From: a virus
Lineage: Duplodnaviria; Heunggongvirae; Uroviricota; Caudoviricetes
IMG/VR virus record: IMGVR_UViG_3300044638_005715
Coordinates: 39,398 to 103,397 of that record
Direction: 5' to 3' (one strand)
Length of the DNA: 64,000 nucleotides
Part shown: one piece after another, positions 2,779-44,791 of the stretch
Layout: the number at the start of each line of letters is the position of its first letter
How positions within the stretch are numbered: the first letter of the stretch is position 1
Program-made: the position numbers and the translations under genes
The notes under the pieces: model-generated
Database searches by the model: none
Seen by the model: the letters and a program-made list of their open reading frames with translations, nothing else
What the model was told of the DNA's origin: nothing

Positions 2779-4905
2779 ATGAAAATTACACACAGAACTA
2801 ACCCAGTTTTAGTAGAAAATGATAATGATGTAAAACAATTTGGTATGATTGTTGATGCCAAGTCATTTAGTATTATTGTCGATGGAATTTATAGTGACAC
2901 AATAAAGGCCATTGTTAGGGAATATGGATGTAATGCTATAGACAGCCACAAAAAGGCAAAAAATTATAGTCCATTTGACATTCATATGCCAACATATAGT
3001 CAGCCTGTATTCTATGTTAGAGATTATGGGGTGGGCCTGGATGAGGAAGACATTGTGAATGTTTTTACAGTTGCTTTTAAATCCACAAAGGAAGATAGTA
3101 ATCTGTTTACGGGCCAACTTGGTATTGGTGCAATGTGCGGTTTTGCTTATAATACAAAGTCATTCACTGTAACATCATGGAAAGATGGTATTGAATATAT
3201 ATATGCATGTTTTCTAAATGAAGATGGGTGCCCAGCATATACTAAAATTTCAGAAAAAAAATCTACAGAACCAACTGGCGTGAAAATTGAATTACCAGTT
3301 GCAAAAAAGGATATGAATAATTTTCGTGTAGATGGTAAGAAGATCATATCATGCTTTGAAATTCAACCAAGTCTATTTGGGGGGCTACAAAAGGGCGATG
3401 TTACAACAATTTTGCATGATAGTAAAACACATTTTAAATTTAATAATTGGGCATACTCTTCTAATAGTAATATAGAGGGGGCCCATGTATTAATGGGAAG
3501 TGTATTATATAAAATACCCTCAGATAATAAGTTAGCAAAATTTTCAAATTTACTAAATCATAATATTATTATATTGGCTAATATTGGTGATATTGATTTT
3601 ACGGTATCTAGAGAGCAAGCTAAATTAACCATTAGGACAGTTGAATTCATAAAAGATGCATTTAAACAGGTTGAAAATGATCTAGTGAAACTTTTTGATG
3701 ATATTTCTAGTGAAAAAAATGAATATGGGGCCATTCAGAAATGCCTAAATATACTCAATAATATGACAAGGGAACAAAGGAATATTATACATTCATTATG
3801 TATATTAAATGAGGTTAAATTTCATAGTAATAGAATACAATCATGCATGAATTCATTTACAGATTCTATCAATAAGAGTGTTCGTCGTGATGATATTCGT
3901 GTATTAGTATCTGCTAATACTATGAGGGGAATTCGTTGCGATAAGTCTTTTAATGGGCTAAATAGATGCATTAATATTCAACTGTATTTAGAGGATAAAA
4001 AGGGTTATAGAAATATTATTGGCAACAGTGTCAAATCTGATAATGATAAATTTAAAGTTGCCATCATATTTAATAGTAAACTATATACCAAGGAAAGCAT
4101 TGTAGCTTTATTAAATTGTGATGAATCTGATATTATATTGACTTCCTCGATAACTAAGCCATCAATTAATAGATCCACAATTGGTAAATCTGGAGATATT
4201 TCTAAACTTAATATATATGCAAAGCGTGCTTCAGATAAATTTATCAATATTGAAAATGCATTTAATGATAAGACAACGTATTATTACGTCGAAAGATGTG
4301 GTTATAGCTATAAGTACAAAGATATGGTAGATAATATTACTAATTTATCTATAGTATTTAAGTATATGAATACTGAACATGGCTGTCTCGATATTTACGC
4401 TGTTAAAACTAAAGCAATAAAAAATCTTGGTAAAAATTGGATAAACATTATTGATTTTGTTACTGAAAAAATTAATAAGGAAGAAGTTATAAAGTTATTG
4501 GCCAATAAAAATGTTTTAGATTCCTTATGGAGTAAGGCAAGTTATTCTTACGATGATAATCTTTATGAATTTATTAGTAAAAATCGCATGGAATTACCAA
4601 GCGATCATCGTATAATTCAATGGTTTGACTCAATGAAGGCCCTATATGTGGATCATAAAGCTGTTAAATCTTCGCAAGCATTGAATTTTCAAACACAAAT
4701 TATGAAAAAATATGCTGGAATTGATGAAAATCACAATTCTGTTAAAAAGATTTATAATATGATAATGAAGCAGTATACTGATTCTATTAAATCATTGGAA
4801 TATGCGGCAGATTATCCAATCATTATTGAAGCATTAGCAAACAATAGAAAATATAAAAATGACAAACTAAAATCACAAATAATTAAATTTTTAACTATCG
4901 CATAA
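2779..4905 (+). CDS. Hsp90/HtpG-like GHKL (Bergerat-fold) ATPase
   Basis: N-box REYGCNAIDS (compare ELISNASDA). G1 box RDYGVGL. G2 box GQLGIGAMCGFAYNTKSFTVTS (compare [21 protein letters not shown] of Hsp90). Length is 708 aa. Confidence 0.65.
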   Translation: MKITHRTNPVLVENDNDVKQFGMIVDAKSFSIIVDGIYSDTIKAIVREYGCNAIDSHKKAKNYSPFDIHMPTYSQPVFYVRDYGVGLDEEDIVNVFTVAFKSTKEDSNLFTGQLGIGAMCGFAYNTKSFTVTSWKDGIEYIYACFLNEDGCPAYTKISEKKSTEPTGVKIELPVAKKDMNNFRVDGKKIISCFEIQPSLFGGLQKGDVTTILHDSKTHFKFNNWAYSSNSNIEGAHVLMGSVLYKIPSDNKLAKFSNLLNHNIIILANIGDIDFTVSREQAKLTIRTVEFIKDAFKQVENDLVKLFDDISSEKNEYGAIQKCLNILNNMTREQRNIIHSLCILNEVKFHSNRIQSCMNSFTDSINKSVRRDDIRVLVSANTMRGIRCDKSFNGLNRCINIQLYLEDKKGYRNIIGNSVKSDNDKFKVAIIFNSKLYTKESIVALLNCDESDIILTSSITKPSINRSTIGKSGDISKLNIYAKRASDKFINIENAFNDKTTYYYVERCGYSYKYKDMVDNITNLSIVFKYMNTEHGCLDIYAVKTKAIKNLGKNWINIIDFVTEKINKEEVIKLLANKNVLDSLWSKASYSYDDNLYEFISKNRMELPSDHRIIQWFDSMKALYVDHKAVKSSQALNFQTQIMKKYAGIDENHNSVKKIYNMIMKQYTDSIKSLEYAADYPIIIEALANNRKYKNDKLKSQIIKFLTIA

Positions 4906-4917: not shown

Positions 4918-5985
4918 ATGAATAAAGCAGCTAAAATAATTACTAGTAATGGAATAACCCTATATTATAATGGTGGGGTCTTTATGGTTTCTAAAGATCA
5001 TGCCGCATATAATGATATGCTATCCTCACTAAAACATAATGATTATGAAAAATTTATTAAGTTATATAGTAAGACAAACCCAATGGAATGCCTCATAGAG
5101 GATAATAGTATTGTATCAGATAATACTGGATCATATTATGTTAAAAATAATAAGAGAATTTTTCTAGGAGACATCCTTAGTCAAAGATATAATGATCTAT
5201 TCGAAGGTGGATATGATGTATCTTATTTAAGGAAATTTATTGAAAATCTAGTTCAAAATACTAGTTATAATGCAATTAAAAGTCTATACGGTTTCTTGGA
5301 AGATAATGATATTCCAATCACTGATGATGGTCACTTTCTCGCTTATAAAGTAGTTGATAAGAATTATCAATCAAAAACCAAAATTAAAAATCTTAACTTA
5401 GTTTCTGGCCAATATAATGATAATCAATCTATTCATAATGGAATTGGTGAAATTATTGAATGTTTAAGGTCAGATGTTGATGATGATAGTGGTACTCCAT
5501 GTAGTTCTGGATTTCATGCGGGAGGTCTAAAATACAGTGGGCCAGGAGGTACATATTATTCAAGTGGCGATAAAGTAATTATTGTCAAAATTAATCCCAA
5601 AGATGTAGTATCTGTTCCAGAAGGGCATACTTATAAATTAAGAACATGCAAGTATGAAGTGATTAAAGATTATACAGATGTACTACCTACAATAGCAACT
5701 GATGAATGTTATTCTGAAAGTAGTAATAATGATAGTCCAAAATTCTTTACAAAATATAATAAATGTCATTATGTGGGTGAATTAATAACATTTAAATATC
5801 GCGGGAAAACAAGACATGGTATAATCAAAGATATTGAGTCAGATAAAAAGCGTGTACTTATTCAATTGACTTCACAAGATATAGGTTTTATCGATGGCGA
5901 TAAAAATTTAAGAAGTTTTATAGTTGAAAAAATGCAAGAGTTAGCAAATTTGTCATTTTATTATAAAATAATTAATAAAACATGA
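4918..5985 (+). CDS. hypothetical protein, translationally coupled to the GHKL ATPase and guaC
   Basis: 355-aa ORF with RBS AAGGGTG; C-terminal small beta-rich (SH3/KOW-like) region; no recognisable catalytic motif. Confidence 0.5.
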   Translation: MNKAAKIITSNGITLYYNGGVFMVSKDHAAYNDMLSSLKHNDYEKFIKLYSKTNPMECLIEDNSIVSDNTGSYYVKNNKRIFLGDILSQRYNDLFEGGYDVSYLRKFIENLVQNTSYNAIKSLYGFLEDNDIPITDDGHFLAYKVVDKNYQSKTKIKNLNLVSGQYNDNQSIHNGIGEIIECLRSDVDDDSGTPCSSGFHAGGLKYSGPGGTYYSSGDKVIIVKINPKDVVSVPEGHTYKLRTCKYEVIKDYTDVLPTIATDECYSESSNNDSPKFFTKYNKCHYVGELITFKYRGKTRHGIIKDIESDKKRVLIQLTSQDIGFIDGDKNLRSFIVEKMQELANLSFYYKIINKT

Positions 5986-6947
5986 AAAAAACATATTCAT
6001 TTAATGATGTACATATAGTTCCAAGATCTAGTGAGCTAGATAGTAGGGCCCAGCCCATTCTGGAAGTATCATATGTAACAAAACATAGTAAGAGAACATT
6101 TAATGGTATGCCACTTATAGTATCCAATATGGATTATATTGGAACATATAAAATGGCATCAGCATTAGCACCTTATAAAATATGGGTGGCTTTAAATAAA
6201 TTTCAAAATATAGTTACCTATAATTACACATATAATAATGTATTTTTTACATTAGGAATGAATGATAAGGATAAAACTAAATTCGACATATTAAAAGCTC
6301 GCCAATCACCAATATGCCTAGATGTAGCTAATGGTTATATCTATAAGTTTTTGGATTATGTAAAATGGGTTAGGGATCAATGCCCCTCATCTATTATTAT
6401 GGCTGGTAATGTATGTACGCCAGAAGGTGTTGAAAATTTAATTAAAGCTGGGGCAGATATTGTTAAGGCTGGAATTGGCGGCGGATCGTTTTGTTTAACT
6501 AGAAATAAAACTGGGGTCGGCATTCCACAATTTACAGTGGCTCAAGAATGCGGCTGGGCAGCTAATGAAATGGGGGCCCTATGCTGTTCAGACGGAGGTG
6601 TCCGCGAAATCGGAGATATAGCTAAGGCATTAGGTTCTGGTTCTCACTTAGTGATGGCCGGATCACTATTTGCTGGTTATGACGAAAATGAAGTTGAATG
6701 GCAAGAAGATCCAATAAGTGGAAAAATAATGCCATTTTACGGAATGTCATCAGCCATGGCTAATAAGAAGTATTTCGATGGATTGAAAGATTATAGGACT
6801 AGTGAGGGCCGTGAGGATTATATTAAGTCTAAGGGGCCCATTTCTGCTTTAGTTCAGGATATAAGGGGCGGCTTGGCATCATGCTGTACTTATACAAACA
6901 CTAAACACATTGAGAATTTAAAGAAAAATTGCACATTTTATAATTGA
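5982..6947 (+). CDS. guaC: GMP reductase (IMPDH/GuaC family, no CBS domains)
   Basis: N-terminal FNDVHIVP and SNMDYIG motifs; active-site GIGGGSFCLTR...GVGIPQ. Length 321 aa fits GuaC rather than IMPDH. Confidence 0.7.
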   Translation: MKKTYSFNDVHIVPRSSELDSRAQPILEVSYVTKHSKRTFNGMPLIVSNMDYIGTYKMASALAPYKIWVALNKFQNIVTYNYTYNNVFFTLGMNDKDKTKFDILKARQSPICLDVANGYIYKFLDYVKWVRDQCPSSIIMAGNVCTPEGVENLIKAGADIVKAGIGGGSFCLTRNKTGVGIPQFTVAQECGWAANEMGALCCSDGGVREIGDIAKALGSGSHLVMAGSLFAGYDENEVEWQEDPISGKIMPFYGMSSAMANKKYFDGLKDYRTSEGREDYIKSKGPISALVQDIRGGLASCCTYTNTKHIENLKKNCTFYN

Positions 6948-6971
6948 CAAATCGGTTTGTCATTGTACAAT
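6944..6971 (+). promoter_or_regulatory. sigma70-like promoter (TTGACA-N16-TACAAT) with an overlapping palindromic operator, upstream of ssb
   Basis: TTGACA 6944-6949 and TACAAT 6966-6971; inverted repeat TGACAAA-tcgg-TTTGTCA at 6945-6962. Confidence 0.55.
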
Positions 6972-7004: not shown

Positions 7005-7406
7005 ATGTCGGATACTAATGTAACTGTAATGAGTGGTCGTGTTACTCGCGATTGTGAATTACGATATACTCAGAATAGTAATGCTGTAGCCAGTCTATCT
7101 ATTGCTTGTAATAGGAAATCAGGTGATCAGGAAAAGACAGTATATATGGATATTAAGATCTGGGGAAAACGAGCAGAAACACTAAGTGAATACTTGAAAA
7201 AGGGTCGTTATATTGTTGTTACAGGACCTATTGAAGAAGATTCATGGGATGATTCTAATGGCAATAAGCGAACAAAAAAGATTTTAGTTGCTGAAACTAT
7301 TAATTTGGTGCCACGCGGAGAATCTACACAAGATGCAAAGTCTCCATATAATACCCAGGAAGATATTCCATCCGGTCTAGTTCCTGATGATCGTGGAGAA
7401 TTCTAA
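7005..7406 (+). CDS. ssb: single-stranded DNA-binding protein (OB fold)
   Basis: VMSGRVTRDCELRYT...IWGKRAETLSEYLKKGRYIVVTG resembles the canonical SSB pattern; acidic C-terminal tail DDRGEF. Confidence 0.75.
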   Translation: MSDTNVTVMSGRVTRDCELRYTQNSNAVASLSIACNRKSGDQEKTVYMDIKIWGKRAETLSEYLKKGRYIVVTGPIEEDSWDDSNGNKRTKKILVAETINLVPRGESTQDAKSPYNTQEDIPSGLVPDDRGEF

Positions 7407-9191: not shown

Positions 9192-9408
9192 AGAACTATT
9201 TTATTTTATAGCACATAATTTTAATACAGAAAATGATGAAAGCCATAAACTATATTCTGATATGTATAAGCAACAACCCGTCTTAGAACTGATGACAAAA
9301 TTAGTTATTGATTCAGATATGTCGCATGATACTAAGGATGGATTTTGTAAGGGCATGTTACAAGTTTGGCACCTTTTAAACCAGCAGGACATTTTAGATA
9401 ATTTATGA
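9160..9408 (+). CDS. hypothetical small protein
   Basis: 82-aa ORF. Confidence 0.3.
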   Translation: MRIIMLPVVSEELFYFIAHNFNTENDESHKLYSDMYKQQPVLELMTKLVIDSDMSHDTKDGFCKGMLQVWHLLNQQDILDNL

Positions 9409-10172
9409 TTAATTTTATTATACAAGATGGAGTATTTTCCGATGAGCAGGAAGAATTAATACAAATTTTAAATGATAGAAAAATTCCATATGAATTAAAT
9501 ATGCCATACAGCATTATTGCCAATGGTAATTATGTTGTTCGTGGCTCAACTGAATTTATAACTGGTTTCGATAGGATGTTTGGAGAATATTGTCATATTA
9601 TTCCATTGAATTTAAAAACATACACATATAGTAAATATGTAAGATCTGTAAGGGCCCTCAATCAGGATTATATTCTTCTTCCTTATCATAAATTATATGA
9701 TGATTTTACATGTAATCATGTTGTTAATTTATTCGAGGGTGAACGAATATTTATGAGACCTAATTCTGGTCGAAAAATATTTGCAGGTACTACCTTATAT
9801 AAACGCACATGGCTAAAAGAATTAGATATTATTAGGTCAATTCCAAATACGTCAATTAAAGATAATACAATGGTGGTATTATCATCTTATAAGAAGCTAG
9901 ATGCGGAATTCAGGATATTTATTCATAATAAACGTATAGTAACATATAGCCAGTATGAAGGATATTATGATGAAATAAATTTCTCTACTTGCCTAGATGA
10001 AATAAGTTATCTTATACGAAATTTGAAAACAACATGCGTAGATGTTGTCGATGTTGGACTGTTTAATCGTAAATTTTACATAATTGAAAGAAATAGCCCG
10101 ATGTCTTCTGGGTGGTATGACATGGATTATCATAAAATTATTGATTGCTTGGAAAATTTCTTTAAAGAATAG
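9405..10172 (+). CDS. hypothetical protein, possibly ATP-grasp-like
   Basis: C-terminal IIERNSPMSSGW resembles the ATP-grasp E-x-N-x-x-PG motif; weak. Confidence 0.4.
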   Translation: MINFIIQDGVFSDEQEELIQILNDRKIPYELNMPYSIIANGNYVVRGSTEFITGFDRMFGEYCHIIPLNLKTYTYSKYVRSVRALNQDYILLPYHKLYDDFTCNHVVNLFEGERIFMRPNSGRKIFAGTTLYKRTWLKELDIIRSIPNTSIKDNTMVVLSSYKKLDAEFRIFIHNKRIVTYSQYEGYYDEINFSTCLDEISYLIRNLKTTCVDVVDVGLFNRKFYIIERNSPMSSGWYDMDYHKIIDCLENFFKE

Positions 10173-10574: not shown

Positions 10575-11693
10575 ATGATTAATATTCAAGATCATAAGTG
10601 GAAAAAAAAATATCCCCTAACAGACCAGAATGCTTTTATTGCACTTGTTGATGTTATGGGCGATGATAATGCAATCGTTCAGGCCGCAAGAACATCATTT
10701 GATGGTGATGCACCTTATGGAATAGCTATTTCCGATAAGGTAAAGAAATGGGCGGAAAAAAAATTATATATTAATTTAGACCATGCCCAATCTATATCTA
10801 AAAATAGCAACGGTATTACTATTCATGGAATAGAAGAAGACTATGAATATTATACTAATAATGAATATTATAAATCTATCTATGGTATATATGAAAAACA
10901 ATTAATTGAGGATAGGCATTTAACAAGATATCTGATGAACCACCAACATTCTACACCATTTGAAATGGTTGTAGTTAAATTTATGGTGCAGGTTCCAATG
11001 GATTGTTGGAGGCAGTGGGTAAGACACCGAATGGCATCAATAAATGAATATTCGACAAGATATACTGAGGCACTAGATTTCTTTCAGGTAACTAATCAGA
11101 GGGAATGGAGGACACAATCAAAGGATAATAAACAGGGTTCATCGGGTTACTTAGAAACATGGCCAGAAAATTGGACAATAAATACAAACTCTAACGTGAT
11201 TCATATTCCCGGAGAAGCTGCAAAATGTTATGGTGCAGGACAATCACCAATGCCTAAAACAGTCGGTGAATATCTTTCAACAGAAGAAGAAAAGTTTCAC
11301 AAATATGCAAAAAAACTTTATAAAGAACGCCTTGATTTAGGAATTGCTAGGGAACAAGCACGAAAAGATTTACCATTAAGCACATATACAAGAGCATATT
11401 GGAAATCAGATTTAAGAAACATATTTAATTTCTTAAAATTAAGAATGGACTCACATGCTCAATTAGAAATCAGGCAGTTTGCTAATGCGATGTTTGATAT
11501 TATCAAGCCTCTATTTCCTGTTGCGTGTGAAGCATTTGAGGACTACGTCCTTCATGCTAAAAGCTTTTCTCGCATGGAAATGGAAGAACTGCGATCAATT
11601 ATCTCTCATTTCATTGATCAGGGATTTGAAATTAACAAGCCCGCCTCCATGACTGATCGTGAATGGAAGGAATTTATAGATAAGATATCATAA
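10575..11693 (+). CDS. thyX: flavin-dependent thymidylate synthase ThyX
   Basis: Exact ThyX signature RHRMASINEYSTR (RHRxxSxxxxSxR); RBS AGAGGA. Confidence 0.8.
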   Translation: MINIQDHKWKKKYPLTDQNAFIALVDVMGDDNAIVQAARTSFDGDAPYGIAISDKVKKWAEKKLYINLDHAQSISKNSNGITIHGIEEDYEYYTNNEYYKSIYGIYEKQLIEDRHLTRYLMNHQHSTPFEMVVVKFMVQVPMDCWRQWVRHRMASINEYSTRYTEALDFFQVTNQREWRTQSKDNKQGSSGYLETWPENWTINTNSNVIHIPGEAAKCYGAGQSPMPKTVGEYLSTEEEKFHKYAKKLYKERLDLGIAREQARKDLPLSTYTRAYWKSDLRNIFNFLKLRMDSHAQLEIRQFANAMFDIIKPLFPVACEAFEDYVLHAKSFSRMEMEELRSIISHFIDQGFEINKPASMTDREWKEFIDKIS

Positions 11694-13308: not shown

Positions 13309-13539
13309 ATGACAAATACTATTATAGGTGTTTTAAAAAAGGTAGATTTAGATACTAAACGTGGTACTATTCACTCAAAAGGAGAGCGGAAAAATATCGA
13401 TTTAAGTAAATTTACTAATAAGCAGATTATGGATATGTTTCGATATAATGAAGATATAATGTTTATTGGAAAATACAAAACAGTAAAATCAAAAATGCTA
13501 ATAGTAGAAGATTACAATTTTATCGGCAATACCACTTGA
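13309..13539 (+). CDS. hypothetical small protein
   Basis: Start set at the ATG preceded by GGAG (the ORF track starts earlier at 13258). Confidence 0.35.
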   Translation: MTNTIIGVLKKVDLDTKRGTIHSKGERKNIDLSKFTNKQIMDMFRYNEDIMFIGKYKTVKSKMLIVEDYNFIGNTT

Positions 13540-13563
13540 CATTTTATTTTTTTGCCTTATAAT
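13536..13563 (+). promoter_or_regulatory. consensus sigma70 promoter TTGACA-N16-TATAAT (early promoter)
   Basis: TTGACA 13536-13541 and TATAAT 13558-13563; near-identical to 2165-2192; its 20-mer core recurs at 56344-56363. Confidence 0.65.
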
Positions 13564-14433: not shown

Positions 14434-15300
14434 ATGAATGATATAGAATTTTTAATACTGAAAAATAGCATACCATTACAAGATATATCATGTATTAACC
14501 CAAATGATAAATCTTATGAGTATAAGTTTTGCCTACATGAATTAGCTAGGCAAGCAAAAGAATTATCTAGTCTAAAAATAGATATTAGGGAAATTCAATA
14601 TGAGGAAATCCCATCTAAAGTTAATTCTGCTATTTTATGTATTTTAGATTCTAGGTCGCTAATACCAACAGATTATATAACTCGAATTATAGCCATTAAT
14701 AATTTACATAGGTCTGCTTCATTTTTTTGCGGACCTATTTTTACAGATTATGTCCAGATTAAATTAAATTGGCTATCTAAAAATTTATTGAAAACATATA
14801 GGGTTTATAATTTAGGTGAATTTGATGGCTTTATTTCAGGCAATATTTGCGGCGACTTTAGGAATTATCCACCAATTTATGGGAACATATTCATTGGTTC
14901 ATACTATAATGCAGTTGGTGGTTATTCACCACTCATTTCTCCGAGGGGCCCGATCCATAAAAATCCTAAATTTTTTCAAAGACTAGAAGGACAAAATAAG
15001 GAAATCATATATAGTACAAGACTATCGACTGGATATGCGATATGTCGGCCCGATACTGATATTGAGAATTTCTCCTCTTATTATTATGGATTGGGATACC
15101 AAGATGGTATTTCATTATCTAGTGAAGATAGTGAACAGCAATATATAAGGTCTAATAATATGCTACATATTGATGATCCATCATGGATAATACAGGGGCC
15201 AGATTCAAACAATGAATCTTATAAAGATCATTTAACGATACTAAAGTGTCAGTATGATTTAGGTTTTGCAGAGGCGAAATTAAAAACACGTATTGTATGA
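14434..15300 (+). CDS. hypothetical protein (first gene of glycosyltransferase island 1)
   Basis: Start moved to the ATG (track uses TTG 14425); co-oriented and overlapping the downstream glycosyltransferase genes. Confidence 0.4.
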   Translation: MNDIEFLILKNSIPLQDISCINPNDKSYEYKFCLHELARQAKELSSLKIDIREIQYEEIPSKVNSAILCILDSRSLIPTDYITRIIAINNLHRSASFFCGPIFTDYVQIKLNWLSKNLLKTYRVYNLGEFDGFISGNICGDFRNYPPIYGNIFIGSYYNAVGGYSPLISPRGPIHKNPKFFQRLEGQNKEIIYSTRLSTGYAICRPDTDIENFSSYYYGLGYQDGISLSSEDSEQQYIRSNNMLHIDDPSWIIQGPDSNNESYKDHLTILKCQYDLGFAEAKLKTRIV

Positions 15301-16262
15301 AATTTAATTTAAGTAATACAACATCTTTCGCACAGCATAGATCTGGATGGTCATATGCTATGCAATACTTAAAAATATATCACAGTAAATATGGTATATT
15401 AGTTGATGATTTTATAGAGAAAACATTTTCATGGGATTTAGACTCATATTACTTACATAATAATAAACATGGGTTGCCATATAATAAAGACTGGATAGGA
15501 TTTTTACATAATCCTCCAAATGTTCCTGACTGGTTTTATAAATATCACCACCCTGAATCAATATTGGGTCGTGAATTATTTCAAATATCATTACAGAAAT
15601 GCAAATGTATTGTAACTTTATCGGATTATTTAAAAAACTGGCTTAGTAATAAAGTCGATGTGCCCATTATCAGCGTGAAACATCCTACGGGATATCCAAA
15701 CCTATATTGGAATTATAGAAAATTTATTAATGGGTCCAAAAAAATTCTTCAACTTGGATATTGGTTGAGGGATTTTGACGCTATTTGTAGATTGAAAACA
15801 CCAAATGGATATGTGAAATATCTGATGCCATCAGATCATGCAACATATAACCACTTAGCCAAAATTAGAGAGGCATGTAGTTCAGAATCTCCACATGAAG
15901 TAAAAAATAAGTGGTCGAATACAACTATATTAAGTAAGTTATCTAATGATGAATTTGATACGCTGTTGTCAAATTCTATTGTATATTTAAAATTATATGA
16001 TAGTTCAGCTAATAACGCAATTATTGAATGTGTTGCTAGAAATACACCAATTATTGTAAATCCAATTCCGCCGGTAATAGAATACCTTGGACCTAATTAT
16101 CCATTATATGCTGAAACAGAGGAAGTGGGGACTAGTATTTTATATGATATTGAGAAAATATATAGGGCTCATACCTATTTAAAGAATATGAATAAAGAAT
16201 GGCTTGATGGTAGGTTCTTTGCACATGATGTATATAAAAAGGTAAATGAATGTCTTATGTAA
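15297..16262 (+). CDS. glycosyltransferase (GT-B fold-like)
   Basis: C-terminal pattern YLKLYDSSANNAIIECVARNTPIIVNP resembles the GT-B donor-binding region. Confidence 0.45.
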   Translation: MKFNLSNTTSFAQHRSGWSYAMQYLKIYHSKYGILVDDFIEKTFSWDLDSYYLHNNKHGLPYNKDWIGFLHNPPNVPDWFYKYHHPESILGRELFQISLQKCKCIVTLSDYLKNWLSNKVDVPIISVKHPTGYPNLYWNYRKFINGSKKILQLGYWLRDFDAICRLKTPNGYVKYLMPSDHATYNHLAKIREACSSESPHEVKNKWSNTTILSKLSNDEFDTLLSNSIVYLKLYDSSANNAIIECVARNTPIIVNPIPPVIEYLGPNYPLYAETEEVGTSILYDIEKIYRAHTYLKNMNKEWLDGRFFAHDVYKKVNECLM

Positions 16263-17074
16263 TTTATACTGGGGCCTTTTCTATAGGTTGGAATTATTTT
16301 GACGGACTCCAACAATGGCAAATATATAATTTATATAATATGCAAAAATATTGTGATCGGCACGATATTGAATTAAGAGTAATAGATAATTCAAATAAGG
16401 AATTATCATCTTTATTTTCCTATGCAAGAGAAAAAAGTAATTATAAAGCTGATTCATGGAATATAGCAACATTATCTAGTATCATAGCGTTAAATGATTT
16501 TTCTAAACGTAACGATGATAAATTTTTATGGTTAGATCTTGACTTTGTTATAACTGATCATAAGTTAGATATATTTAAATATATTGATGAATATCATATA
16601 TTGATTGAACTATGGTATAAAACAATATTTAATGAAAAGAAGGAAAAATTTTTCTCATATCTGAATAGATATTTGCCGCAAAATGCACAATATATTTTCC
16701 CACTATTATGTTACAGTGGTATTTTTGGATGTGATACAATACGAGCTAAAGGCATAATTGATTTTATGCATAGTCATTCAGTATATCCAACATATAGTTT
16801 TATTGATGATATGATTGAATTATATAAAGGAGATAAACATTTTATATCAGATGAATGTATAATGGAATTTGTTTGCAACAATTATGCTGGAAGTGAAGGT
16901 AATGGTAGAATAAATGTTCCAGTTAATATTAAAGATTATATTAATATTGAACTAGTTACAGAAGATAATATGGATTCAGTAAATGCAATATCTGATGATT
17001 TTTTTGGATATCACTTTGCTAGTGGTAGTAAAATCAATATACCTAAATTCTTTCGAGACAACAAACTATGTTAA
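16250..17074 (+). CDS. putative nucleotide-diphospho-sugar transferase (GT-A-like)
   Basis: WLDLDFVITD, a DxD-like motif. Confidence 0.35.
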   Translation: MSYVIYTGAFSIGWNYFDGLQQWQIYNLYNMQKYCDRHDIELRVIDNSNKELSSLFSYAREKSNYKADSWNIATLSSIIALNDFSKRNDDKFLWLDLDFVITDHKLDIFKYIDEYHILIELWYKTIFNEKKEKFFSYLNRYLPQNAQYIFPLLCYSGIFGCDTIRAKGIIDFMHSHSVYPTYSFIDDMIELYKGDKHFISDECIMEFVCNNYAGSEGNGRINVPVNIKDYINIELVTEDNMDSVNAISDDFFGYHFASGSKINIPKFFRDNKLC

Positions 17075-18135
17075 ATTTAAATATTCAGGCCCCAATATGT
17101 CATACGGGATATGGTCAGGTTGGCTATAACTTATCATTAGAATTAAGCAAAATAGCTAATGTTACTATATTTCCAATTGGGCCCGTTCAGGAATTTCCGC
17201 AATCAAATATTATCAATAACCTTATAATAGGCAATAAGAATATAGAAAATATAATGGAGGCCCCATCTATTAAGATATGGCACCAGAATGATTTATTTTC
17301 TCATATATCTAGATCACAAAGGGTGGGCTTTCCAATATTTGAATTAGATAGGTTTAGTGATATTGAAATAATGAGCCTTAAATCATGTGATGTCATTTAT
17401 GTATGCTCAAAATGGGCCCAAAATATAATTCATAATCACCTACCTAATAAAAATGTAGTTGTTGTCCCGCTTGGTGTTGATACTGATATTTTTTACCCTT
17501 CTAGTGTAAAAAGAAAAAATACCATATTTCTCAATTGTGGTAAATGGGAAATTAGAAAGGGGCATGATGTTTTATTACATGCATTTAATAAGGCATTTTC
17601 ACCAAAAGATAATGTAGAATTATGGATGATGTGTGAAAATATGATAACCCCACAAGTGAATAATGAGTGGATTAAATTATATAAGGAAAGTCCACTGGGT
17701 AATAAGGTAAGAATCATACCATATCAGCAGTCACATATAGATGTGGCTAATATAATGAAACAGGCTGATTGCGGTGTTTTTCCAGCGAGGGCGGAAGGTT
17801 GGAATTTAGAATTATTAGAAATGATGGCATGTGGAAAAAATGTTATAACTACTAATTATGCTGGCCATACTGAATTTTGCAACAATGATAATTCCAGACT
17901 AATTGAAATTACAGAGACTGAATCTGCATATGATGGAATATGGTTTAATCATCAGGGTTCGTGGGCGTCTATTAAAAATAATGAAATGGAAGCTTTAATA
18001 ACACACATGAGAAATATTCACAATGAAAAATTATCTAATGGGTACGTTGAAGGAAATATTAGTGGAATTATGACATCTCGTACATTTTCTTGGAAAAATT
18101 CTGCTTTTTTGGCTTCATCACTATATCATAAATAA
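17068..18135 (+). CDS. glycosyltransferase family 4 (GT-B)
   Basis: GKWEIRKGHDVLL together with EGWNLELLEMMACGKNVITT (the GT4 E-x7-E region). Confidence 0.6.
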   Translation: MLNLNIQAPICHTGYGQVGYNLSLELSKIANVTIFPIGPVQEFPQSNIINNLIIGNKNIENIMEAPSIKIWHQNDLFSHISRSQRVGFPIFELDRFSDIEIMSLKSCDVIYVCSKWAQNIIHNHLPNKNVVVVPLGVDTDIFYPSSVKRKNTIFLNCGKWEIRKGHDVLLHAFNKAFSPKDNVELWMMCENMITPQVNNEWIKLYKESPLGNKVRIIPYQQSHIDVANIMKQADCGVFPARAEGWNLELLEMMACGKNVITTNYAGHTEFCNNDNSRLIEITETESAYDGIWFNHQGSWASIKNNEMEALITHMRNIHNEKLSNGYVEGNISGIMTSRTFSWKNSAFLASSLYHK

Positions 18136-19964: not shown

Positions 19965-20660
19965 ATGGCAGTCCCAGGTTTTAAGGGCCACTTACGCAAT
20001 ACTAGCGGTGGCGAATATACTAAGCAAACATATAGTGCAGTTGCACTTGGTTTAACTGATCCAGAAGTTATTTTCACAAGGGCTTTTGGCATTAATGATG
20101 CAATACAGTCCAATCAATTAGCTTCGCGTGATACTTTACCCCGTGAACGAAGTGGTGCAGGCACATATAATGCTAAGAAAATTCTTTCAGGTGGAGAATT
20201 TGCATATAATGCCGCTAAATATGGTACTTATATTGCTTCTCGTTTAACCAATAAATTGGCAGGCATTAGCAATAATGCATTGTTATTTATGGGTAAGGGT
20301 AAGTTACGCAAAATTAATCATGATTTTGCTCATGACTTTGGTGCTAGGATTTTATCAGCATTTAGGGCAAATCTATTTGCTCCATTAGGGCTATTAGATA
20401 ATGGTCAAAAATTAAAGTCTCGTCGTTTGTGGCTTGATCCCGCTAATCGTAATTCTGCATCTGGGGCCGCTCCAGTAAGCTTAACCACCACCAATATGTT
20501 AGATATTGCTGATGGTAATGCAACAGATAAGGCATTCGATAGGGCATCCAAACCAACAAGGGCTATTCCTGGAACACTTGTTGTTCTCATTGACTTTACA
20601 GATGCTGATATTGCTACCAGTGGCAATTATCTACAATATAGTCCAATTACCTACGCTTAA
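19965..20660 (+). CDS. hypothetical Ala/Gly/Ser-rich protein in a self-contained transcription unit with deviant GC-richer codon usage
   Basis: RBS GGAG; CGT/CGC arginine codons unlike the rest of the window; followed directly by a strong terminator. Confidence 0.55.
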   Translation: MAVPGFKGHLRNTSGGEYTKQTYSAVALGLTDPEVIFTRAFGINDAIQSNQLASRDTLPRERSGAGTYNAKKILSGGEFAYNAAKYGTYIASRLTNKLAGISNNALLFMGKGKLRKINHDFAHDFGARILSAFRANLFAPLGLLDNGQKLKSRRLWLDPANRNSASGAAPVSLTTTNMLDIADGNATDKAFDRASKPTRAIPGTLVVLIDFTDADIATSGNYLQYSPITYA

Positions 20661-20680
20661 TTCTTGTATAATTTAGAAAA

Positions 20681-20708
20681 AGGGGATAGCAATATCCCCT
20701 TATTTTTT
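20681..20708 (+). terminator. rho-independent terminator
   Basis: Stem AGGGGATA/TATCCCCT with loop GCAA, followed by TTATTTTTTAA. Confidence 0.8.
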
Positions 20709-21246: not shown

Positions 21247-21774
21247 ATGAGACAAGACAAAATATCTAATTTTATGCAATTGGCTTTTACAATTGCTAAT
21301 AGGTCCCCAGACCCAAAAACTAAATGTGGTTCAATAATAACAGATAATCGTGGAAGAATCATAGGATCGGGCTATAATGGAATGCCCCGAGATACTGATG
21401 AAGAAGCATTTCCATGGGAACGCGGCGAAGGGCAAGAAGACCCATTATCCAAGTACCCATATGTACACCACGCGGAAAAAAATGCCATTCTAAATTGTGT
21501 TGTTACGCCACATTATATTGGCGGTGCAATTTGTTATGTTAATGGCAAATGTTGCTTTAGATGTTTAAATGACCTATGGCAATTTGGAATTCATACAGTA
21601 TATCAGGGCAATGTATTACCCAGAATGGTTGACGATAATCATAAAAAAATTATTGATCGCATTATATCTAAAACGGGTATTAATATTATCAACGTAGATT
21701 GTTCCATATATAATTGGTATGAAGACATCATGAGGCAGCAAAATGAGTATTTTCGACAAGAGAACAGCCTTTAA
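21247..21774 (+). CDS. dCMP deaminase
   Basis: HHAEKNAIL and CCFRCLN zinc motifs (HAE...CxxC) of deoxycytidylate deaminases. Confidence 0.7.
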   Translation: MRQDKISNFMQLAFTIANRSPDPKTKCGSIITDNRGRIIGSGYNGMPRDTDEEAFPWERGEGQEDPLSKYPYVHHAEKNAILNCVVTPHYIGGAICYVNGKCCFRCLNDLWQFGIHTVYQGNVLPRMVDDNHKKIIDRIISKTGINIINVDCSIYNWYEDIMRQQNEYFRQENSL

Positions 21775-23674
21775 GCCCTTTGAATATCCTGATGTTATTA
21801 AATTTGTGGATGCTATAAATCACAGTTATTGGCTTCACTCGGAATGGAATTTCATTTCTGACATACAGGATTTTAACACAAAATTAAGTGAGAAGGAAAA
21901 AAATGCAATAAAAAATGCATTATTGGCCATATCTCAAATAGAGGTTAGTGTTAAAAGCTTTTGGGGCAAATTACATGACACATTACCAAAACCAGAATTT
22001 AATGCTGTTGGTGCCACATTTGCGGAATCTGAGTGTTTCGATAACCAAACAGAAGTGTTAACATCTGATGGTTGGATTAAATTTGAGGAATTATCAAATC
22101 TTCATGAAGTGGCACAGTATGATATTGATACCAAACACATAACATTTGAAAAGCCACTAGAAGTAATAAAGAAACCATATAATGGAAAAATGCATATTTA
22201 CCAGGGGAGAAGGACGGACTTATGTGTGACTCCAAACCATGAATTATTACTAATAAATCCACACAGCAAAAAAATCAATAAGAAAAAATCAATAAGCGGT
22301 GCTTGGGGAAGAAACTTTTATTATCCTAGCTCTGGATATGGTGTCGGCACATTAGAATTTACAGATATTGACAGATTGTTAATAGCCATTCAGGCCGATG
22401 GATCTTTATACGGTGCATGTCCAAGTGGTACTGGTAGAAAAGATTTTTGTTTTGAGTTATCTAAAAATAGAAAAATAAAGAGAATAAAATATATACTTCA
22501 AAAACTACAAATAAATTATACAGAATCCATAAGATCTAGTAATAATCATACTATTATTAGTGGTGTATTACCAGATTATATTGATGTGGACAAGATAAAG
22601 AACTTTGACTATATTGATGTCACAAAAATATCACCGGAATTTTGTAGGAATTTTATTGAAGAATTATTAAATTGGGATGCCTCATTAAAAACATATTATA
22701 ATTCAAATGAAAAAGCTGTTGATAAAGTTCAAATCATAGCAACTCTCGGGGGATTTACATGCTCCAAAGGTATCAATAGAACCAAAGAGCAAAACATGTT
22801 AAGAAAAAACCCAGACGGAAACATTAGAAAATCATCTAAAACTCAATATTCTGTAAATATAACAAACACAGACAAAATTGTTTATCCACATAGAAAAGAA
22901 ATAGATTATGATGATATGGTATATTGTGTTACAATGTCCAAGGGAACAGTTGTTACTAGAAGGGGATCTAGTGTTTCTATACAAGGTAATTGTAGACACG
23001 AAAGGGCTTATAGCCACTTGTTAGAAGTATTAGATCTTAATCATGATTTTGAGATTCTATTACAGAATCCAGTAATTCAGGGCCGAGTAGATTATTTAAC
23101 TAAATATCTTAAAGGGGCCGCCGATAATAATAAAGAAGCATATACATTAACACTTACTTTATTTTCCCTTTTCATTGAGAATGTTAGTTTATTCAGCCAA
23201 TTTGCAATTATTAAATCATTTAACAAATATAAGAATGTGTTGAAGGACATAGACAATGTTGTGCAAGCAACACAACAGGAAGAACAGCTACACGCTAAGT
23301 TTGGGGCCTACATTGTTAATCAAATTAAATTAGAGTATCCTGAGTGGTTCGATGAAGAATTTTATGCCAAAATTAAAAGGGCCTGCCACAAAGCTTATGA
23401 TGCCGAGTCCAAGATTATTGATTGGATTTTTGAATTAGGCGATTTAGAATTTATAACAGCAAAACAAATTAAAGAATTTATTAAGAATAGGTTTAATCTA
23501 TCATTAGATATGATTGGTTGCGATCCTGTTTTTGATATTGATTCAGAGATTATTAAACAGATGAAATGGTTTGATGAGGAAATATATACTACAAATAATA
23601 TAGATTTCTTCAATAAGAAAAGTACAAATTATAGTAAAAAGATTGATTCTATTAATTCAGGGGATTTATTTTAA
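21743..23674 (+). CDS. nrdB: ribonucleotide reductase small subunit NrdB interrupted by an intein
   Basis: Extein FAESE|...|CRHERAYSHLL restores the E-x-x-H iron ligands. C-terminal DFFNKKSTNYSK is the R1-binding tail. Internal LLIAIQADGS matches LAGLIDADG. Confidence 0.75.
   Translation: MSIFDKRTAFKPFEYPDVIKFVDAINHSYWLHSEWNFISDIQDFNTKLSEKEKNAIKNALLAISQIEVSVKSFWGKLHDTLPKPEFNAVGATFAESECFDNQTEVLTSDGWIKFEELSNLHEVAQYDIDTKHITFEKPLEVIKKPYNGKMHIYQGRRTDLCVTPNHELLLINPHSKKINKKKSISGAWGRNFYYPSSGYGVGTLEFTDIDRLLIAIQADGSLYGACPSGTGRKDFCFELSKNRKIKRIKYILQKLQINYTESIRSSNNHTIISGVLPDYIDVDKIKNFDYIDVTKISPEFCRNFIEELLNWDASLKTYYNSNEKAVDKVQIIATLGGFTCSKGINRTKEQNMLRKNPDGNIRKSSKTQYSVNITNTDKIVYPHRKEIDYDDMVYCVTMSKGTVVTRRGSSVSIQGNCRHERAYSHLLEVLDLNHDFEILLQNPVIQGRVDYLTKYLKGAADNNKEAYTLTLTLFSLFIENVSLFSQFAIIKSFNKYKNVLKDIDNVVQATQQEEQLHAKFGAYIVNQIKLEYPEWFDEEFYAKIKRACHKAYDAESKIIDWIFELGDLEFITAKQIKEFIKNRFNLSLDMIGCDPVFDIDSEIIKQMKWFDEEIYTTNNIDFFNKKSTNYSKKIDSINSGDLF
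22034..22990 (+). mobile_element. intein (319 aa, LAGLIDADG homing-endonuclease domain) within nrdB
   Basis: Starts at Cys (CFDNQ...) and ends ...SIQGN followed by a +1 Cys; penultimate residue is Gly rather than His. Confidence 0.65.
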
Positions 23675-37479: not shown

Positions 37480-37947
37480 ATGAAAGAATTAACATTAGAA
37501 GAAAAATCAGTAAATTATGATACGTTTCGCCACATTGAAAGGGTTAGAAATTTAATAAATACATGTATTAGGAATCTGTTAACCAGGGCCGAAAAACATG
37601 ACCAATCTAAACTTGAAGATCCAGAAGTTTCTTATTTTTTAAAATATACAGCACTCTTAAAGACATGTACATATAATAGTGATCAATATAAATCTTATTT
37701 ACAAGAGATGAAACCAGCATTAGATCATCATTATGCTAATAATTCTCATCATCCAGAGCACTATAAGGATGGAATTAATGATATGAATTTATTAGATTTA
37801 ATGGAGATGTTATGTGATTGGAAAGCTGCCAGCGAGAGACATAATGACGGAAATATTCGTAAATCAATAGAAGTCAATGTACAACGATTTGGAATATCGC
37901 CACAATTAACACGCATTTTAGAAAATACAGTAGATTTATTATCATGA
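37480..37947 (+). CDS. hypothetical His-rich protein (possible HD-like hydrolase)
   Basis: HHYANNSHHPEHY cluster; weak. Confidence 0.35.
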   Translation: MKELTLEEKSVNYDTFRHIERVRNLINTCIRNLLTRAEKHDQSKLEDPEVSYFLKYTALLKTCTYNSDQYKSYLQEMKPALDHHYANNSHHPEHYKDGINDMNLLDLMEMLCDWKAASERHNDGNIRKSIEVNVQRFGISPQLTRILENTVDLLS

Positions 37948-38411
37948 TTATAGCAGGTACGGGCCATAGACCAAAATATTGCCCATGTAAATACAATGAA
38001 TCCCATCCATGGCTGGCGGAATTAAAAAATAAACTACGTCTAGCTTTGGATGAAGTACGCCCAGTCGCTATAATTAGTGGCATGGCGATTGGTTGGGACA
38101 CTTGGTTGGCGGAAGTCTCCCTTAGTTCAAATATCCCACTTCATTGTTACGTGCCATTCAAGGGCCAGGGCAAAACTTGGCCCAGTGCCTCATATAAAAA
38201 ATATTTAGATATTTTAGATAGGGCGGCACTAGTTAAGCACACATCTGAAAATTATACACCAGATTGTTTTTTTGTGCGTGATAAAGCAATGATTGACGAT
38301 TGTTCTATTGTTTTTTCACTTCTTGACCCATCTATCAATAGTGGTGGGACATATTATACAGTTCAATACGCTAAAGAAAAGAATAAACCTATTACAAATT
38401 TTTGGTTCTAA
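37944..38411 (+). CDS. SLOG-superfamily protein (YpsA/DUF1273-like)
   Basis: N-terminal IIAGTGHRP, then ISGMAIGWDTW and YYTVQYA; pattern of YpsA-family Rossmann-like proteins. Confidence 0.5.
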   Translation: MIIAGTGHRPKYCPCKYNESHPWLAELKNKLRLALDEVRPVAIISGMAIGWDTWLAEVSLSSNIPLHCYVPFKGQGKTWPSASYKKYLDILDRAALVKHTSENYTPDCFFVRDKAMIDDCSIVFSLLDPSINSGGTYYTVQYAKEKNKPITNFWF

Positions 38412-38414: not shown

Positions 38415-39122
38415 ATGAGTAAATTAAATCGTGGTTTGCCAATCATAATATATGATTTCGAAACAACAGGTAAAAATCCTTACACATGTCAGGTAACACA
38501 AATTGCAGCTATTGTTATAGATGGTATGTCATTAACTCCTAAAGATGGGGGCATATTTAATACAGAGGTATGTCCCATTTTTGACGATGACAAGGCTATT
38601 GCTGCGGGGTATGGGCCCGTAGAACAAGAGGCCCTAAATATTACTAGAAAAACTAGAGAGGGCCTAGAAGGGGCACCTGATATTAAGATTGCCTGGAAAA
38701 ACTTTCGAGATTTTTGTAAAAGATTTTCAAGGGGCTCAGATTCATACAATGCACCCATTTCTGCTGGATATAATATTAATGGATATGATGCAATTATTGT
38801 AAAAAGACTATGTGATAAATATGGGCCCGTAGATAAAAATGGACGCCCATCCATATTCAATGCACTATTTAAATATGATGTAATGGATATGGTATATTCA
38901 TGGCTTGAATTTTCAGATTCTTCTGAATTATCTGGAATTAGTTTAGTTAAAGTATGTGAGTTTTTAGGAATACCTAGTGAACATACCGATTTAGCACATG
39001 ATGCATTAGTTGATGTTAAAAATACCGCTAATATACTTATTAGATTTTTAAAATATCAACGAGAATTATCACGTAATACAAAGTTTAAGAATAGTTTTGA
39101 GAATGGGGTATTTTATGTTTAA
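38415..39122 (+). CDS. DnaQ-like 3'-5' exonuclease
   Basis: Exo I IIYDFETTG; Exo III HDALVD. Confidence 0.7.
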   Translation: MSKLNRGLPIIIYDFETTGKNPYTCQVTQIAAIVIDGMSLTPKDGGIFNTEVCPIFDDDKAIAAGYGPVEQEALNITRKTREGLEGAPDIKIAWKNFRDFCKRFSRGSDSYNAPISAGYNINGYDAIIVKRLCDKYGPVDKNGRPSIFNALFKYDVMDMVYSWLEFSDSSELSGISLVKVCEFLGIPSEHTDLAHDALVDVKNTANILIRFLKYQRELSRNTKFKNSFENGVFYV

Positions 39123-39750
39123 TTTAAATATTGAAGATTGTAAATCACAGATTGGTCAAGACGTATGGATAACTAAAAAATTAAATGAAATGGATTTTAA
39201 TCCAAATGATTTTTACTTTGTTGATATTGGTGCTTATGATGGTTTGCACCTATCCAACACGTATGCATTTGAAAAAAATCTAGGGGCAAAGGGAGTGTGC
39301 GTAGAATGTAATCCACTTATGATCCAAGGGTTTAAATATAATAGACCAAATTCTGATTTATGCACTAAGGCCATTTATACAGAAAGCGGACATAAATTAA
39401 AGTTTTCACTAAATGATTGCAATTCGTGCATTGATAATAATGGAGATTATGAAGTAGAGACCATAAGTATTAATGATTTATTAACAACATATAACGCCCC
39501 TCGAAATATAACATATATTAATTTAGATATTGAGGGATTAGAACCAGAAATTCTTGCCACTTTTGATTTTAGTAAATGGAATGTTTTAACATGGACAATT
39601 GAACATAATCATGTAGAAGCAAATAAGAATAAAATATTAGATATTCTACTCAAGCATAATTATATGGTTAAATTACATGAATGGGATATCTTTGCCTACA
39701 AAGATTTCTTAGAGCCCATTTATTATGTTGATGGTGTCCGCGTAAAATAA
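39115..39750 (+). CDS. FkbM-family SAM-dependent methyltransferase
   Basis: FVDIGAYDGLH (G-A-x-D-G) motif; start could also be 39097. Confidence 0.5.
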   Translation: MFNLNIEDCKSQIGQDVWITKKLNEMDFNPNDFYFVDIGAYDGLHLSNTYAFEKNLGAKGVCVECNPLMIQGFKYNRPNSDLCTKAIYTESGHKLKFSLNDCNSCIDNNGDYEVETISINDLLTTYNAPRNITYINLDIEGLEPEILATFDFSKWNVLTWTIEHNHVEANKNKILDILLKHNYMVKLHEWDIFAYKDFLEPIYYVDGVRVK

Positions 39751-42159: not shown

Positions 42160-42235
42160 ATACAGTGGAAAGGTATATGATCTATCTGTTGAAAATACAA
42201 GTTGTTATAATGTAGAGGGTTTAGGAGTTCATAAT
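42131..42235 (+). mobile_element. split intein C-terminal half (Int-C)
   Basis: Ends HN followed by a +1 Ser. Confidence 0.65.
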
Positions 42236-44494: not shown

Positions 44495-44791
44495 ATGAAT
44501 AATTGTATATTTTCTGGATATGTATATGAAAAACCAGAATTACAAATGGTTGACGGTGTTAGCTATTGTAACTTTTCTCTACTAGTCAACGAGGAAAGAA
44601 AGGGTAATAAAATAGAAACTATTATAGATTGTGAAATTTGGGATTCTGGAGCGGAAGCATTTGTTAATCTAGCTAACGGTGGGGATGAGGTATTCATTGA
44701 ATCATCTGCTCGCAATACAGAATTTGATGAAGAAGAATATGTTATATTCCGTGTAAATAAATTTAAGATCATTTTTGGAAATAATAAATGA
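44495..44791 (+). CDS. small OB-fold (SSB-like) protein
   Basis: FSGYVYEKPELQ...IDCEIWDSGAEAF resembles the SSB L45/beta pattern. Confidence 0.4.
   Translation: MNNCIFSGYVYEKPELQMVDGVSYCNFSLLVNEERKGNKIETIIDCEIWDSGAEAFVNLANGGDEVFIESSARNTEFDEEEYVIFRVNKFKIIFGNNK

Follow-up and report, generated by a model that had tools for sequence, protein, structure and literature searches.

The stretch of DNA analyzed here, 64,000 nucleotides long and hereafter called the window, spans positions 39,398 to 103,397 of the IMG/VR record IMGVR_UViG_3300044638_005715 and covers a part of a large phage genome (∼31% GC) given over to replication and nucleotide metabolism. It encodes rIIA, rIIB, a GMP-reductase-like protein, two SSB proteins, ThyX, dCMP deaminase, ribonucleotide reductase (RNR), and a T4-type dNMP kinase, together with PhoH, a UvsX-like recombinase, DnaB, a primase, a split DnaE-type polymerase, and a sigma-factor-like gene. 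A phage origin is supported by the presence of rIIA/rIIB, the UvsX-like recombinase, DnaB, primase, RNR, and PhoH and by homologs on IMG/VR contigs. No close cultured relative was found; megablast of the locus described below gave no match, and no record exceeds 30% identity to the polymerase. Within the window lies island 1, a run of four overlapping plus-strand genes, designated GT_A to GT_D, that fills positions 14434-18135 exactly in the open reading frame (ORF) listing. The same four genes are called by public gene callers on identical contigs, and a metagenomic contig of 137,218 bp carries the identical sequence. GT_A (14434-15300 when counted from an ATG; the listed frame begins at a TTG at 14425) encodes 288 amino acids, GT_B (15297-16262) 321, GT_C (16250-17074) 274, and GT_D (17068-18135) 355, and neighboring genes overlap by 4, 13, and 7 bases. 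As set out below, island 1 is very probably one part of a phage-encoded gene set for the assembly of a glycan.

The last gene of the run is readily placed. GT_D scores 61.5 bits against PF00534 (cutoff 26.4) and 60.7 bits against PF13692 (cutoff 27) in Pfam and matches phrog_2170 in PHROGs at 1.9e-24. Its E-x7-E motif reads EGWNLELLE at residues 243-251, and across 34 unique homologs E243-x7-E251, the segment GKWExRKG (158-165), and H72 are at least 95% conserved. By profile threshold and motifs, GT_D qualifies as a bona fide GT4 glycosyltransferase (GT), for which the family would imply a retaining mechanism. IMG/VR yielded 46 loci with homologs at 40-53% identity, the longest of their contigs reaching 145 kb, and GT_D also matches the tandem GTs of Streptomyces BE-cluster phages weakly but significantly, at 22-25% identity (E 1e-6 to 1e-8). 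The best cultured-phage match is a domain of a 1226-amino acid multidomain protein of Microcystis phage Mel-JY01 that is annotated "methyltransferase FkbM" (locus L167, 4750-8430); this protein adjoins a "structural protein" and lies near a cytidylyltransferase-like gene.

GT_C has only five word-sharing homologs, in which W94, D96, and D98 are invariant. The model of GT_C is of moderate confidence (predicted local distance difference test, pLDDT, 73.9) and adopts a GT-A fold, and its best structural match is a chlorovirus GT (PBCV-1 A64R) implicated in capsid glycosylation. With both the modeled fold and a conserved W-x-D-x-D motif found, the assignment of GT_C as a GT-A fold DxD glycosyltransferase is well supported.

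GT_B has no Pfam or NCBIfam match, the top Pfam signal being PF13439 at E 0.15 and 12.5 bits. Its family counts more than 200 homologs, and none among the 120 matches listed carries a Pfam GT domain. An AlphaFold2 model built from a 33-sequence alignment reached a pLDDT of 93.6. When this model was compared with the PDB by Foldseek, SenB was returned with a probability of 1.0 and an E of 8e-9, followed by BshA, MshA, sucrose-phosphate synthase, and PglA; the E values to SenB, BshA, and MshA run from 1e-8 to 1e-6. A profile search of PDB sequences also gave SenB, as a weak match. At the level of predicted structure only, GT_B is confirmed as a GT-B fold glycosyltransferase. The canonical E-x7-E is replaced in GT_B by D235-x8-E244, within a signature DSSANN-x3-E-x3-RNTP in which D235, S237, A238, N239, T250, and P251 are invariant. 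The nearest viral models (Foldseek, BFVD) are GT domains in multidomain giant-virus proteins, with template modeling (TM) scores of 0.72-0.86 at 22-27% identity, and GT_B is far closer to these than to any solved structure (TM about 0.6).

Cellular homologs of GT_B were found in 79 loci and are widespread on bacterial chromosomes. In a Bacteroidota metagenome-assembled genome, the homolog (∼40% identity) belongs to a cluster of Wzm/Wzt type that also contains GT2 genes, FkbM, and AlgX. In the Oculatellaceae cyanobacterium GCA_036702875.1 (L050, 1-12332), it is fused to TPR repeats and clustered with two GT2 genes, an epimerase, a sulfotransferase-like gene, an ABC exporter, PqqD, and two NTP_transf_5 genes. 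The make-up of this cluster resembles clusters for modified peptides (like those of ribosomally synthesized and post-translationally modified peptides) or for sulfated glycans. A pattern scan of IMG/VR for GT_B found nothing, and the phage homologs were recovered by tblastn inside the loci fetched with GT_D. A GT_B-GT2 fusion was considered as a "Rosetta stone" for the pairing of GT_A with GT_B but was dropped, as the one case (P0106) may be a gene-calling or contig-end artifact.

GT_A belongs to a small family, with 45 cluster representatives among 1.84 billion, and gave no informative match in Pfam (35 members), NCBIfam, PHROGs, or the PDB sequences (35-member profile). Its residues 67-216 align in hhalign to the GT2 catalytic core over 135 columns, with 84% probability and an E of 7.5e-6. 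The GT2 profile was built from 125 sequences of the fetched loci, and reversed-profile controls gave 0.5%. Against a single GT2 sequence the probability was only 5%, and the comparison of GT_A with GT_C by hhalign gave nothing. A conserved DxD metal-binding motif is missing from GT_A: position 75 is Asp in 20 of the 35 members, and position 77 is mostly Asn. GT_A is probably a GT2-like protein of GT-A fold, and because the DxD position is degenerate it may lack catalysis. A member of its family stands directly upstream of GT_B in all six phage lineages (the window, the L009 group, L031, L162, L164, and L165), and not one of the 79 cellular GT_B loci has a GT_A homolog.

The first-pass annotation of this DNA had described about four GT-like genes in an island at 14434-18135, among them a clear GT4 protein with an E-x7-E motif, a GT-B-like protein, and a DxD-type transferase. 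Its coordinates are exact and the gene calls agree. The three named proteins correspond to GT_D, GT_B, and GT_C, all well supported, GT_B by structure only; GT_A, which completes the four, is a probable GT.

The place of island 1 in its phage group was read from ∼70 related phage loci, with GT_D mapped by gene order in the 46 IMG/VR loci that had been fetched with it. GT_D is present in all 46, at a fixed position after the SSB gene, within a backbone that runs rIIA, rIIB, GMP reductase, (dCMP deaminase), SSB, a variable slot, GT_D, a few small genes, o18776, the sigma-like gene, and o19965. Judged from gene content, this shows GT_D to be a core gene of the clade, with GT_A, GT_B, and GT_C accessory and confined to a minority of the relatives. 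On its left the slot is bounded by a conserved anchor, the SSB gene (7005-7406, plus strand, PF00436), which has a homolog upstream of GT_D in most relatives; the right anchor is GT_D itself. The slot measures 9.6 kb in the window, and in L045 SSB directly adjoins GT_D.

Much of what fills the slot in relatives also concerns glycans. The slot of L009 holds a sulfotransferase (3488-4216) and an NTP_transferase; that of L034 holds a radical-SAM/SPASM enzyme (5456-6565), a sub-threshold Glyco_trans_1_2 match, and an NAD-dependent epimerase/dehydratase; that of L020 holds a sub-threshold CAP59-like GT-A match; and a GlmS-like protein lies near the slot in L165. Non-glycan genes, encoding DUF1501 and DNA ligase, are found there in some relatives. 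The DUF1501 protein, of a sulfatase-like family, occupies 6930-8213 in L001. Taken with the radical-SAM/SPASM enzyme and the sulfotransferase, it hints that members of the clade make or handle sulfated glycans.

A second group of glycan genes, island 2, is likewise built around anchors. The first, w44788 (44788-46398, 536 amino acids), is a GT4-type enzyme (PF00534, 5e-13) with homologs at 35-46% identity in the same place, just behind the DnaE-type polymerase, in nearly all relatives. Two further GT4-type glycosyltransferases (46391-47509, PF00534, 5.9e-11; 47427-48461, PF00534, 2.5e-20), a GT2-family glycosyltransferase (49578-50369, PF00535, 2e-16), w50362 (50362-51051), and a Glyco_trans_1_2-type glycosyltransferase (51023-52102, PF13524, 1e-23) complete the set, all on the plus strand. 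w50362 is a probable sugar-1-phosphate nucleotidylyltransferase similar to the GlmU N-domain (NCBIfam GlmU, E 1.5e-11, a match at the domain level only and far under the equivalog cutoffs; the Pfam search gave no match). It has homologs at 27-32% identity in nearly all relatives and would supply a nucleoside diphosphate (NDP)-sugar donor. Genes between and around w44788 and w50362 are partly replaced among relatives, and the version in the window and its closest relative, L052, is expanded. An FkbM-family methyltransferase (39097-39750, plus strand; PF05050, Methyltransf_21) may O-methylate a sugar within what would be the same pathway. Because the slot of island 1 and island 2 both keep their anchors and swap the genes around them, the clade, on the evidence of gene content, is one with a core glycosylation capacity and lineage-specific elaboration. 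An SSB gene precedes each island (7005-7406 and 44495-44791), and in several relatives an SSB like that at 7005 sits before the island 2 anchor GT instead. Duplication of an SSB-GT4 module as the source of both islands was rejected, since GT_D and w44788 have no more than generic GT4 motifs in common and the two SSB proteins are dissimilar.

With three firm and one probable transferase in island 1 and five above the Pfam threshold in island 2, the first-pass count of at least eight GT-like genes holds. The accompanying remark that this is unusually many for a phage was overstated, as the cyanomyovirus S-SCSM2R carries 13 GTs (PMC12801897) and the moraphages have four core GT orthogroups (PMC12619734). 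The moraphages are unlikely to be the same lineage, given that they are reported to have DNA polymerases I and B and genomes of >200 kb (PMC12619734).

Island 1 appears to be expressed from a host-type promoter. A perfect sigma-70-type promoter, TTGACA-16-TATAAT, lies at 13536-13563 on the plus strand, in an intergenic position 43 nt upstream of o13606, and perfect matches number 3 versus 0.27 expected. Spacer included, the 28-nt promoter is almost identical at 13536 and 2165 (TTGACATTTkATTTTTTTkCCTTATAAT; 2 matches versus 0 expected), and four sites with at least 11 of 12 promoter positions stand in plus-strand intergenic gaps, 34-43 nt upstream of ORF starts. Sites of this promoter family are at 135-162, 2165-2192, 6944-6971, and 13536-13563. 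A terminator-like hairpin followed by a T-run at 20680-20701 (plus strand), after o19965, probably ends the transcription unit begun at 13536, and we infer that island 1 belongs to an early unit read by host RNA polymerase from that promoter. The canonical TTGACA/TATAAT argues for a host with a matching primary sigma factor, and so perhaps for one outside the Bacteroidota despite the low GC. The conserved protein o19965 (19965-20660), directly after the sigma-like gene, has 231 amino acids and is basic, with an isoelectric point (pI) of 9.75; it has the highest GC (0.39) of the tabulated window ORFs, atypical codon usage, and no family or PDB match. It is possibly a structural or DNA-binding protein made at a high level.

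The four genes of island 1 have GC contents of 0.26-0.32 against a window mean of 0.31, and their codon usage is phage-typical (ranks 13-33 of 57). Composition, codon usage, and conservation in relatives rule out recent passenger DNA as the origin of island 1. The first-pass annotation had named an absence of GT domains, or an absence from related phages together with host-like codon usage, as findings that would speak against it. Instead, GT domains or folds are present, GT_D recurs in 46 of 46 loci, and GC and codon usage are those of the phage.

None of the island proteins has a hydrophobic segment, and the sole window ORF with one is 103 amino acids long. The related phage loci encode no multi-pass membrane protein of at least 300 amino acids; by contrast, multi-pass membrane proteins are encoded in 42 of the 79 cellular GT_B loci. 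Soluble enzymes unaccompanied by membrane genes, as predicted here, point to a cytoplasmic acceptor or to reliance on host machinery.

Which molecule receives the glycan is a less certain matter than the presence of a glycan pathway. We tentatively favor, largely by analogy, a virion or other phage protein that is glycosylated in the cytoplasm, because the GTs are soluble, the donor supply is partly phage-encoded, and a conserved core is combined with variable extensions. The enzymes would act sequentially in the cytoplasm on NDP-sugars, partly made by the phage through w50362. GT_D and w44788 would build a core conserved in the clade, and the GT_A/GT_B pair and GT_C would add strain-specific extensions. 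The acceptor would most likely be one or more phage structural proteins, so that progeny virions would bear a variable glycan coat, which may be likened to those of mycobacteriophages, chloroviruses, and mimivirus-like giant viruses. The chlorovirus match of GT_C and the giant-virus relatives of GT_B also count in favor of this reading. Island 2 ends ∼2.5 kb from a convergent block of very large ORFs (1681, 1354, 845, 508, and 499 amino acids) that have no Pfam match and may be structural genes. The core status of the gene set in a lytic-type clade would suit a role in the virion or life cycle better than optional host conversion, and nine or more transferases exceed the needs of the known DNA glycans, which are mono- to trisaccharides (bioRxiv 2023.12.21.572611).

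Several points weigh against a phage-protein acceptor. The assignment is reached by exclusion and analogy. Both islands lie in a replication and nucleotide-metabolism module and are apparently early, a pattern also shown by the DNA glucosyltransferases of T4. The placement of cellular GT_B homologs in clusters for surface polysaccharides (Wzm/Wzt) makes a lipid-linked acceptor plausible. No capsid, terminase, or other structural gene was identified within the window, and the portion of the genome that was inspected and annotated, the window plus ∼10 kb on each side, amounts to ∼84 of ∼137 kb. GT_A is a probable rather than a firm GT. Finally, the modeled structural matches to A64R and to giant-virus proteins are matches of fold only and are silent on the acceptor.

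Remodeling of the host envelope is a competing reading, though on balance a rather unlikely one. Here the phage GTs would act on undecaprenyl-linked O-antigen, capsule, or S-layer intermediates, and host exporters would display the product. By the same uncertain route, the altered envelope might block superinfection or keep progeny off infected cells and debris, and the like has been proposed for the GT/lipopolysaccharide (LPS) clusters of cyanomyoviruses (PMC12801897). The cellular relatives of GT_B speak for this possibility, being common on bacterial chromosomes and located in polysaccharide clusters where the context was examined, as does the FkbM methyltransferase of the phage; apparent early expression from a host-type promoter would also suit modification of the host. 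The phage has the same three enzyme types as the Wzm/Wzt clusters, which combine GT_B homologs (∼40% identity) with GT2 enzymes and FkbM. Unlike those clusters, it has no Wzm/Wzt, initiating transferase, or membrane component, and its GT_B is always paired with GT_A. No initiating phosphoglycosyltransferase, flippase, ABC permease, polymerase, or ligase was found in the window or in the ∼70 related loci. The surface-converting GT systems that are known belong to the accessory genes of temperate phages, whereas the gene set described here is core to a clade of lytic-type gene content (rIIA/B, RNR, a replisome of its own, and no integrase seen). The hallmarks of Gtr-type seroconversion, which are the membrane proteins GtrA, GtrB, and GtrX and a temperate lifestyle, are likewise missing, with no membrane GTs in the window, no integrase among the annotated genes, and lytic-type gene content. 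Phage-encoded NDP-sugar supply plus nine or more GTs would also be a large outlay for a transient effect. The lack of genes for membrane export or a polymerase argues against a self-contained surface-polysaccharide pathway, although such a pathway could still borrow components of the host.

Decidedly less probable is another soluble acceptor, such as host proteins or small molecules, or an origin of GT_A, GT_B, and GT_C as unrelated morons in a recombination hotspot. The outcome might, for example, be an inactivated host factor, a compatible solute, a storage glycan, or a modified peptide. It is true that the GT4/GT-B relatives of these enzymes include the small-molecule GTs SenB, BshA, MshA, and sucrose-phosphate synthase and that the TPR-fused cellular GT_B homolog lies beside PqqD/NTP_transf_5-type peptide-modification genes. 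Small-molecule pathways, however, seldom require nine GTs. The DUF1501 and DNA ligase genes beside GT_D in some relatives would fit a hotspot for unrelated cargo, but the strict adjacency of GT_A and GT_B, the four overlapping frames, and the repeated co-occurrence with NDP-sugar and sulfation enzymes point to one concerted glycan pathway.

Hypermodification of DNA, in which the GTs would glycosylate a hydroxylated base such as 5-hydroxymethylcytosine (5hmC), 5-hydroxycytosine (5hoC), or 5-hydroxymethyluracil (5hmU) as protection from restriction and CRISPR, is very improbable. The location of the islands near the SSB genes, the DnaE-type polymerase, dCMP deaminase, RNR, and the T4-type dNMP kinase would suit it, as would apparently early expression and the core status of GT_D. 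In this the phage resembles the known DNA GT systems (T4 alpha-/beta-GT, the arabinosyl-5hoC systems of RB69/DLP3, and the methyltransferase (MT)/5mYOX clusters), whose GTs also lie among early DNA-metabolism genes. Phage DNA GTs were, moreover, recruited from polysaccharide-type enzymes of LPS or teichoic acid pathways and can be accompanied by NDP-sugar biosynthesis genes (PMC13326640, bioRxiv 2023.12.21.572611). The known routes to DNA glycosylation pass through a ThyA homolog (hmC, 5hoC, hmU) or through a C5-methyltransferase and a TET-like dioxygenase (PMC13326640, bioRxiv 2023.12.21.572611). Such precursor enzymes are what sets the present phage apart, in that no ThyA homolog, TET/5mYOX dioxygenase, or C5-methyltransferase was seen among the Pfam annotations of ∼84 kb, a stretch that includes the visible nucleotide-metabolism genes. 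ThyX and dCMP deaminase instead provide a canonical dTMP route. At least nine GTs, together with the sulfotransferase, epimerase, and radical-SAM enzyme of relatives, surpass what known DNA glycans need, and the acidic character of most GTs (pI 5.0-6.5) speaks, if weakly, against their binding to DNA.

The first-pass annotation had listed three possible roles. DNA hypermodification is disfavored because no enzyme generating a hydroxylated base was seen in the annotated stretch, host-surface remodeling by a pathway complete in itself is argued against, and glycosylation of virion proteins leads, though unproven.

A more specific version of the favored phage-protein acceptor concerns the partnership of GT_A with GT_B. 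It is unlikely, though worth stating, that the two form a phage-specific two-component glycosyltransferase which, together with GT_D, would provide the clade with a programmable virion glycan, sulfated in some lineages. GT_A would then serve as a non-catalytic subunit for acceptor recognition or for activation of GT_B, in the manner of GtfB in GtfA/GtfB or of Alg14 with Alg13, and its coupling to GT_B would redirect the latter from lipid-linked glycans to a phage protein.

The closest known systems differ from this one in instructive ways. Actinobacteriophages with virion glycosylation carry one to four GTs. As in the phage described here, these are soluble GT-A/GT-B enzymes that act in the cytoplasm without export machinery and vary in content between relatives. 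Unlike in those phages, there are here nine or more GTs plus NDP-sugar enzymes, placed in the early replication module of a ∼137 kb phage. O-glycosylation of the capsid and tail tube in mycobacteriophages is as summarized in PMC12619734 (Freeman et al. 2023). The capsid or fibril glycosylation of chloroviruses and mimivirus-type viruses (PBCV-1 A64R) belongs to viruses of eukaryotes, and the likeness is one of fold and family, at 11-27% identity. The marine cyanomyoviruses S-SCSM2R, S-SCSM1, and P-SSM2, with their GT and "cell-wall synthesis and modification" clusters, and the moraphages are likewise large phages with many GTs and NDP-sugar epimerases in islands. In contrast to them, the present phage has a DnaE-type polymerase, no close cultured relative, and a GT_A and GT_B that lack a Pfam model, and an architecture of anchor plus variable slot can be defined. 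Multi-GT islands in large phages have already been described, with their roles debated, and ours is another case in an uncharacterized clade. What may be new are the layout in which an anchor gene adjoins a variable slot, the GT_B family with its lack of a Pfam model, and the phage-only GT_A tied to GT_B.

Other features of the window deserve brief mention. Unusual auxiliary genes at 5982-6947, 9405-10172, and 37944-38411 encode a GMP reductase/IMPDH-family protein, which is conserved throughout the clade, an R2K-clade ATP-grasp protein, and a YpsA (SLOG-family) protein. The 372 amino acids of ThyX (10575-11693) include an insertion of ∼100 when compared with the 191-position Pfam profile; in L165, ThyX has 210. 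The RNR small subunit (21743-23674) has 643 amino acids, and an internal segment of ∼320 matches PHROGs of unrelated function (RNR, thymidylate synthase, and PhoH), a pattern characteristic of inteins and homing endonucleases. In L162 and L164, GT_D is followed by Intein_splicing/LAGLIDADG genes. A "terminase" PHROG match of w35494 was not used as a structural marker, as it probably stems from an intein/LAGLIDADG insertion in a PD-(D/E)XK nuclease. Two ORFs, 39765-41228 (PHP and the pol3_alpha N-terminus) and 42131-44485, together make up the split DnaE-type (Pol III alpha) polymerase; Pfam matches to PHP and DNA_pol3_alpha rule out PolA. The ORF inserted between the halves (41311-42159; GC 0.22; weak TnsA-like and endonuclease-I-like matches) is probably a homing endonuclease, and the insertion is shared by relatives L064-L066 and absent from others. 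Just ahead of rIIA, genes for a Thg1-like tRNA-His guanylyltransferase, an RNA ligase, and a metallophosphoesterase lie close to one another (883-1698 and the upstream flank; L077, 6158-7411), a group that may form a tRNA repair module.

Whatever the acceptor proves to be, GT_B represents a large GT-B family in bacteria, phages, and giant viruses for which there is no Pfam model and no solved structure, and GT_A represents a small phage-only family strictly coupled to it. Both are targets for biochemistry and for better annotation, and a conserved anchor next to a variable slot offers a simple handle for mining the glycan diversity of viromes. If the glycan is indeed placed on virions, virion glycosylation would extend from actinobacteriophages and giant viruses to a widespread clade of uncultured large phages. 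Glycan coats would then be suggested as a general, fast-evolving feature of phage surfaces, with a bearing on adsorption, grazing, immune recognition, and the stickiness of particles.

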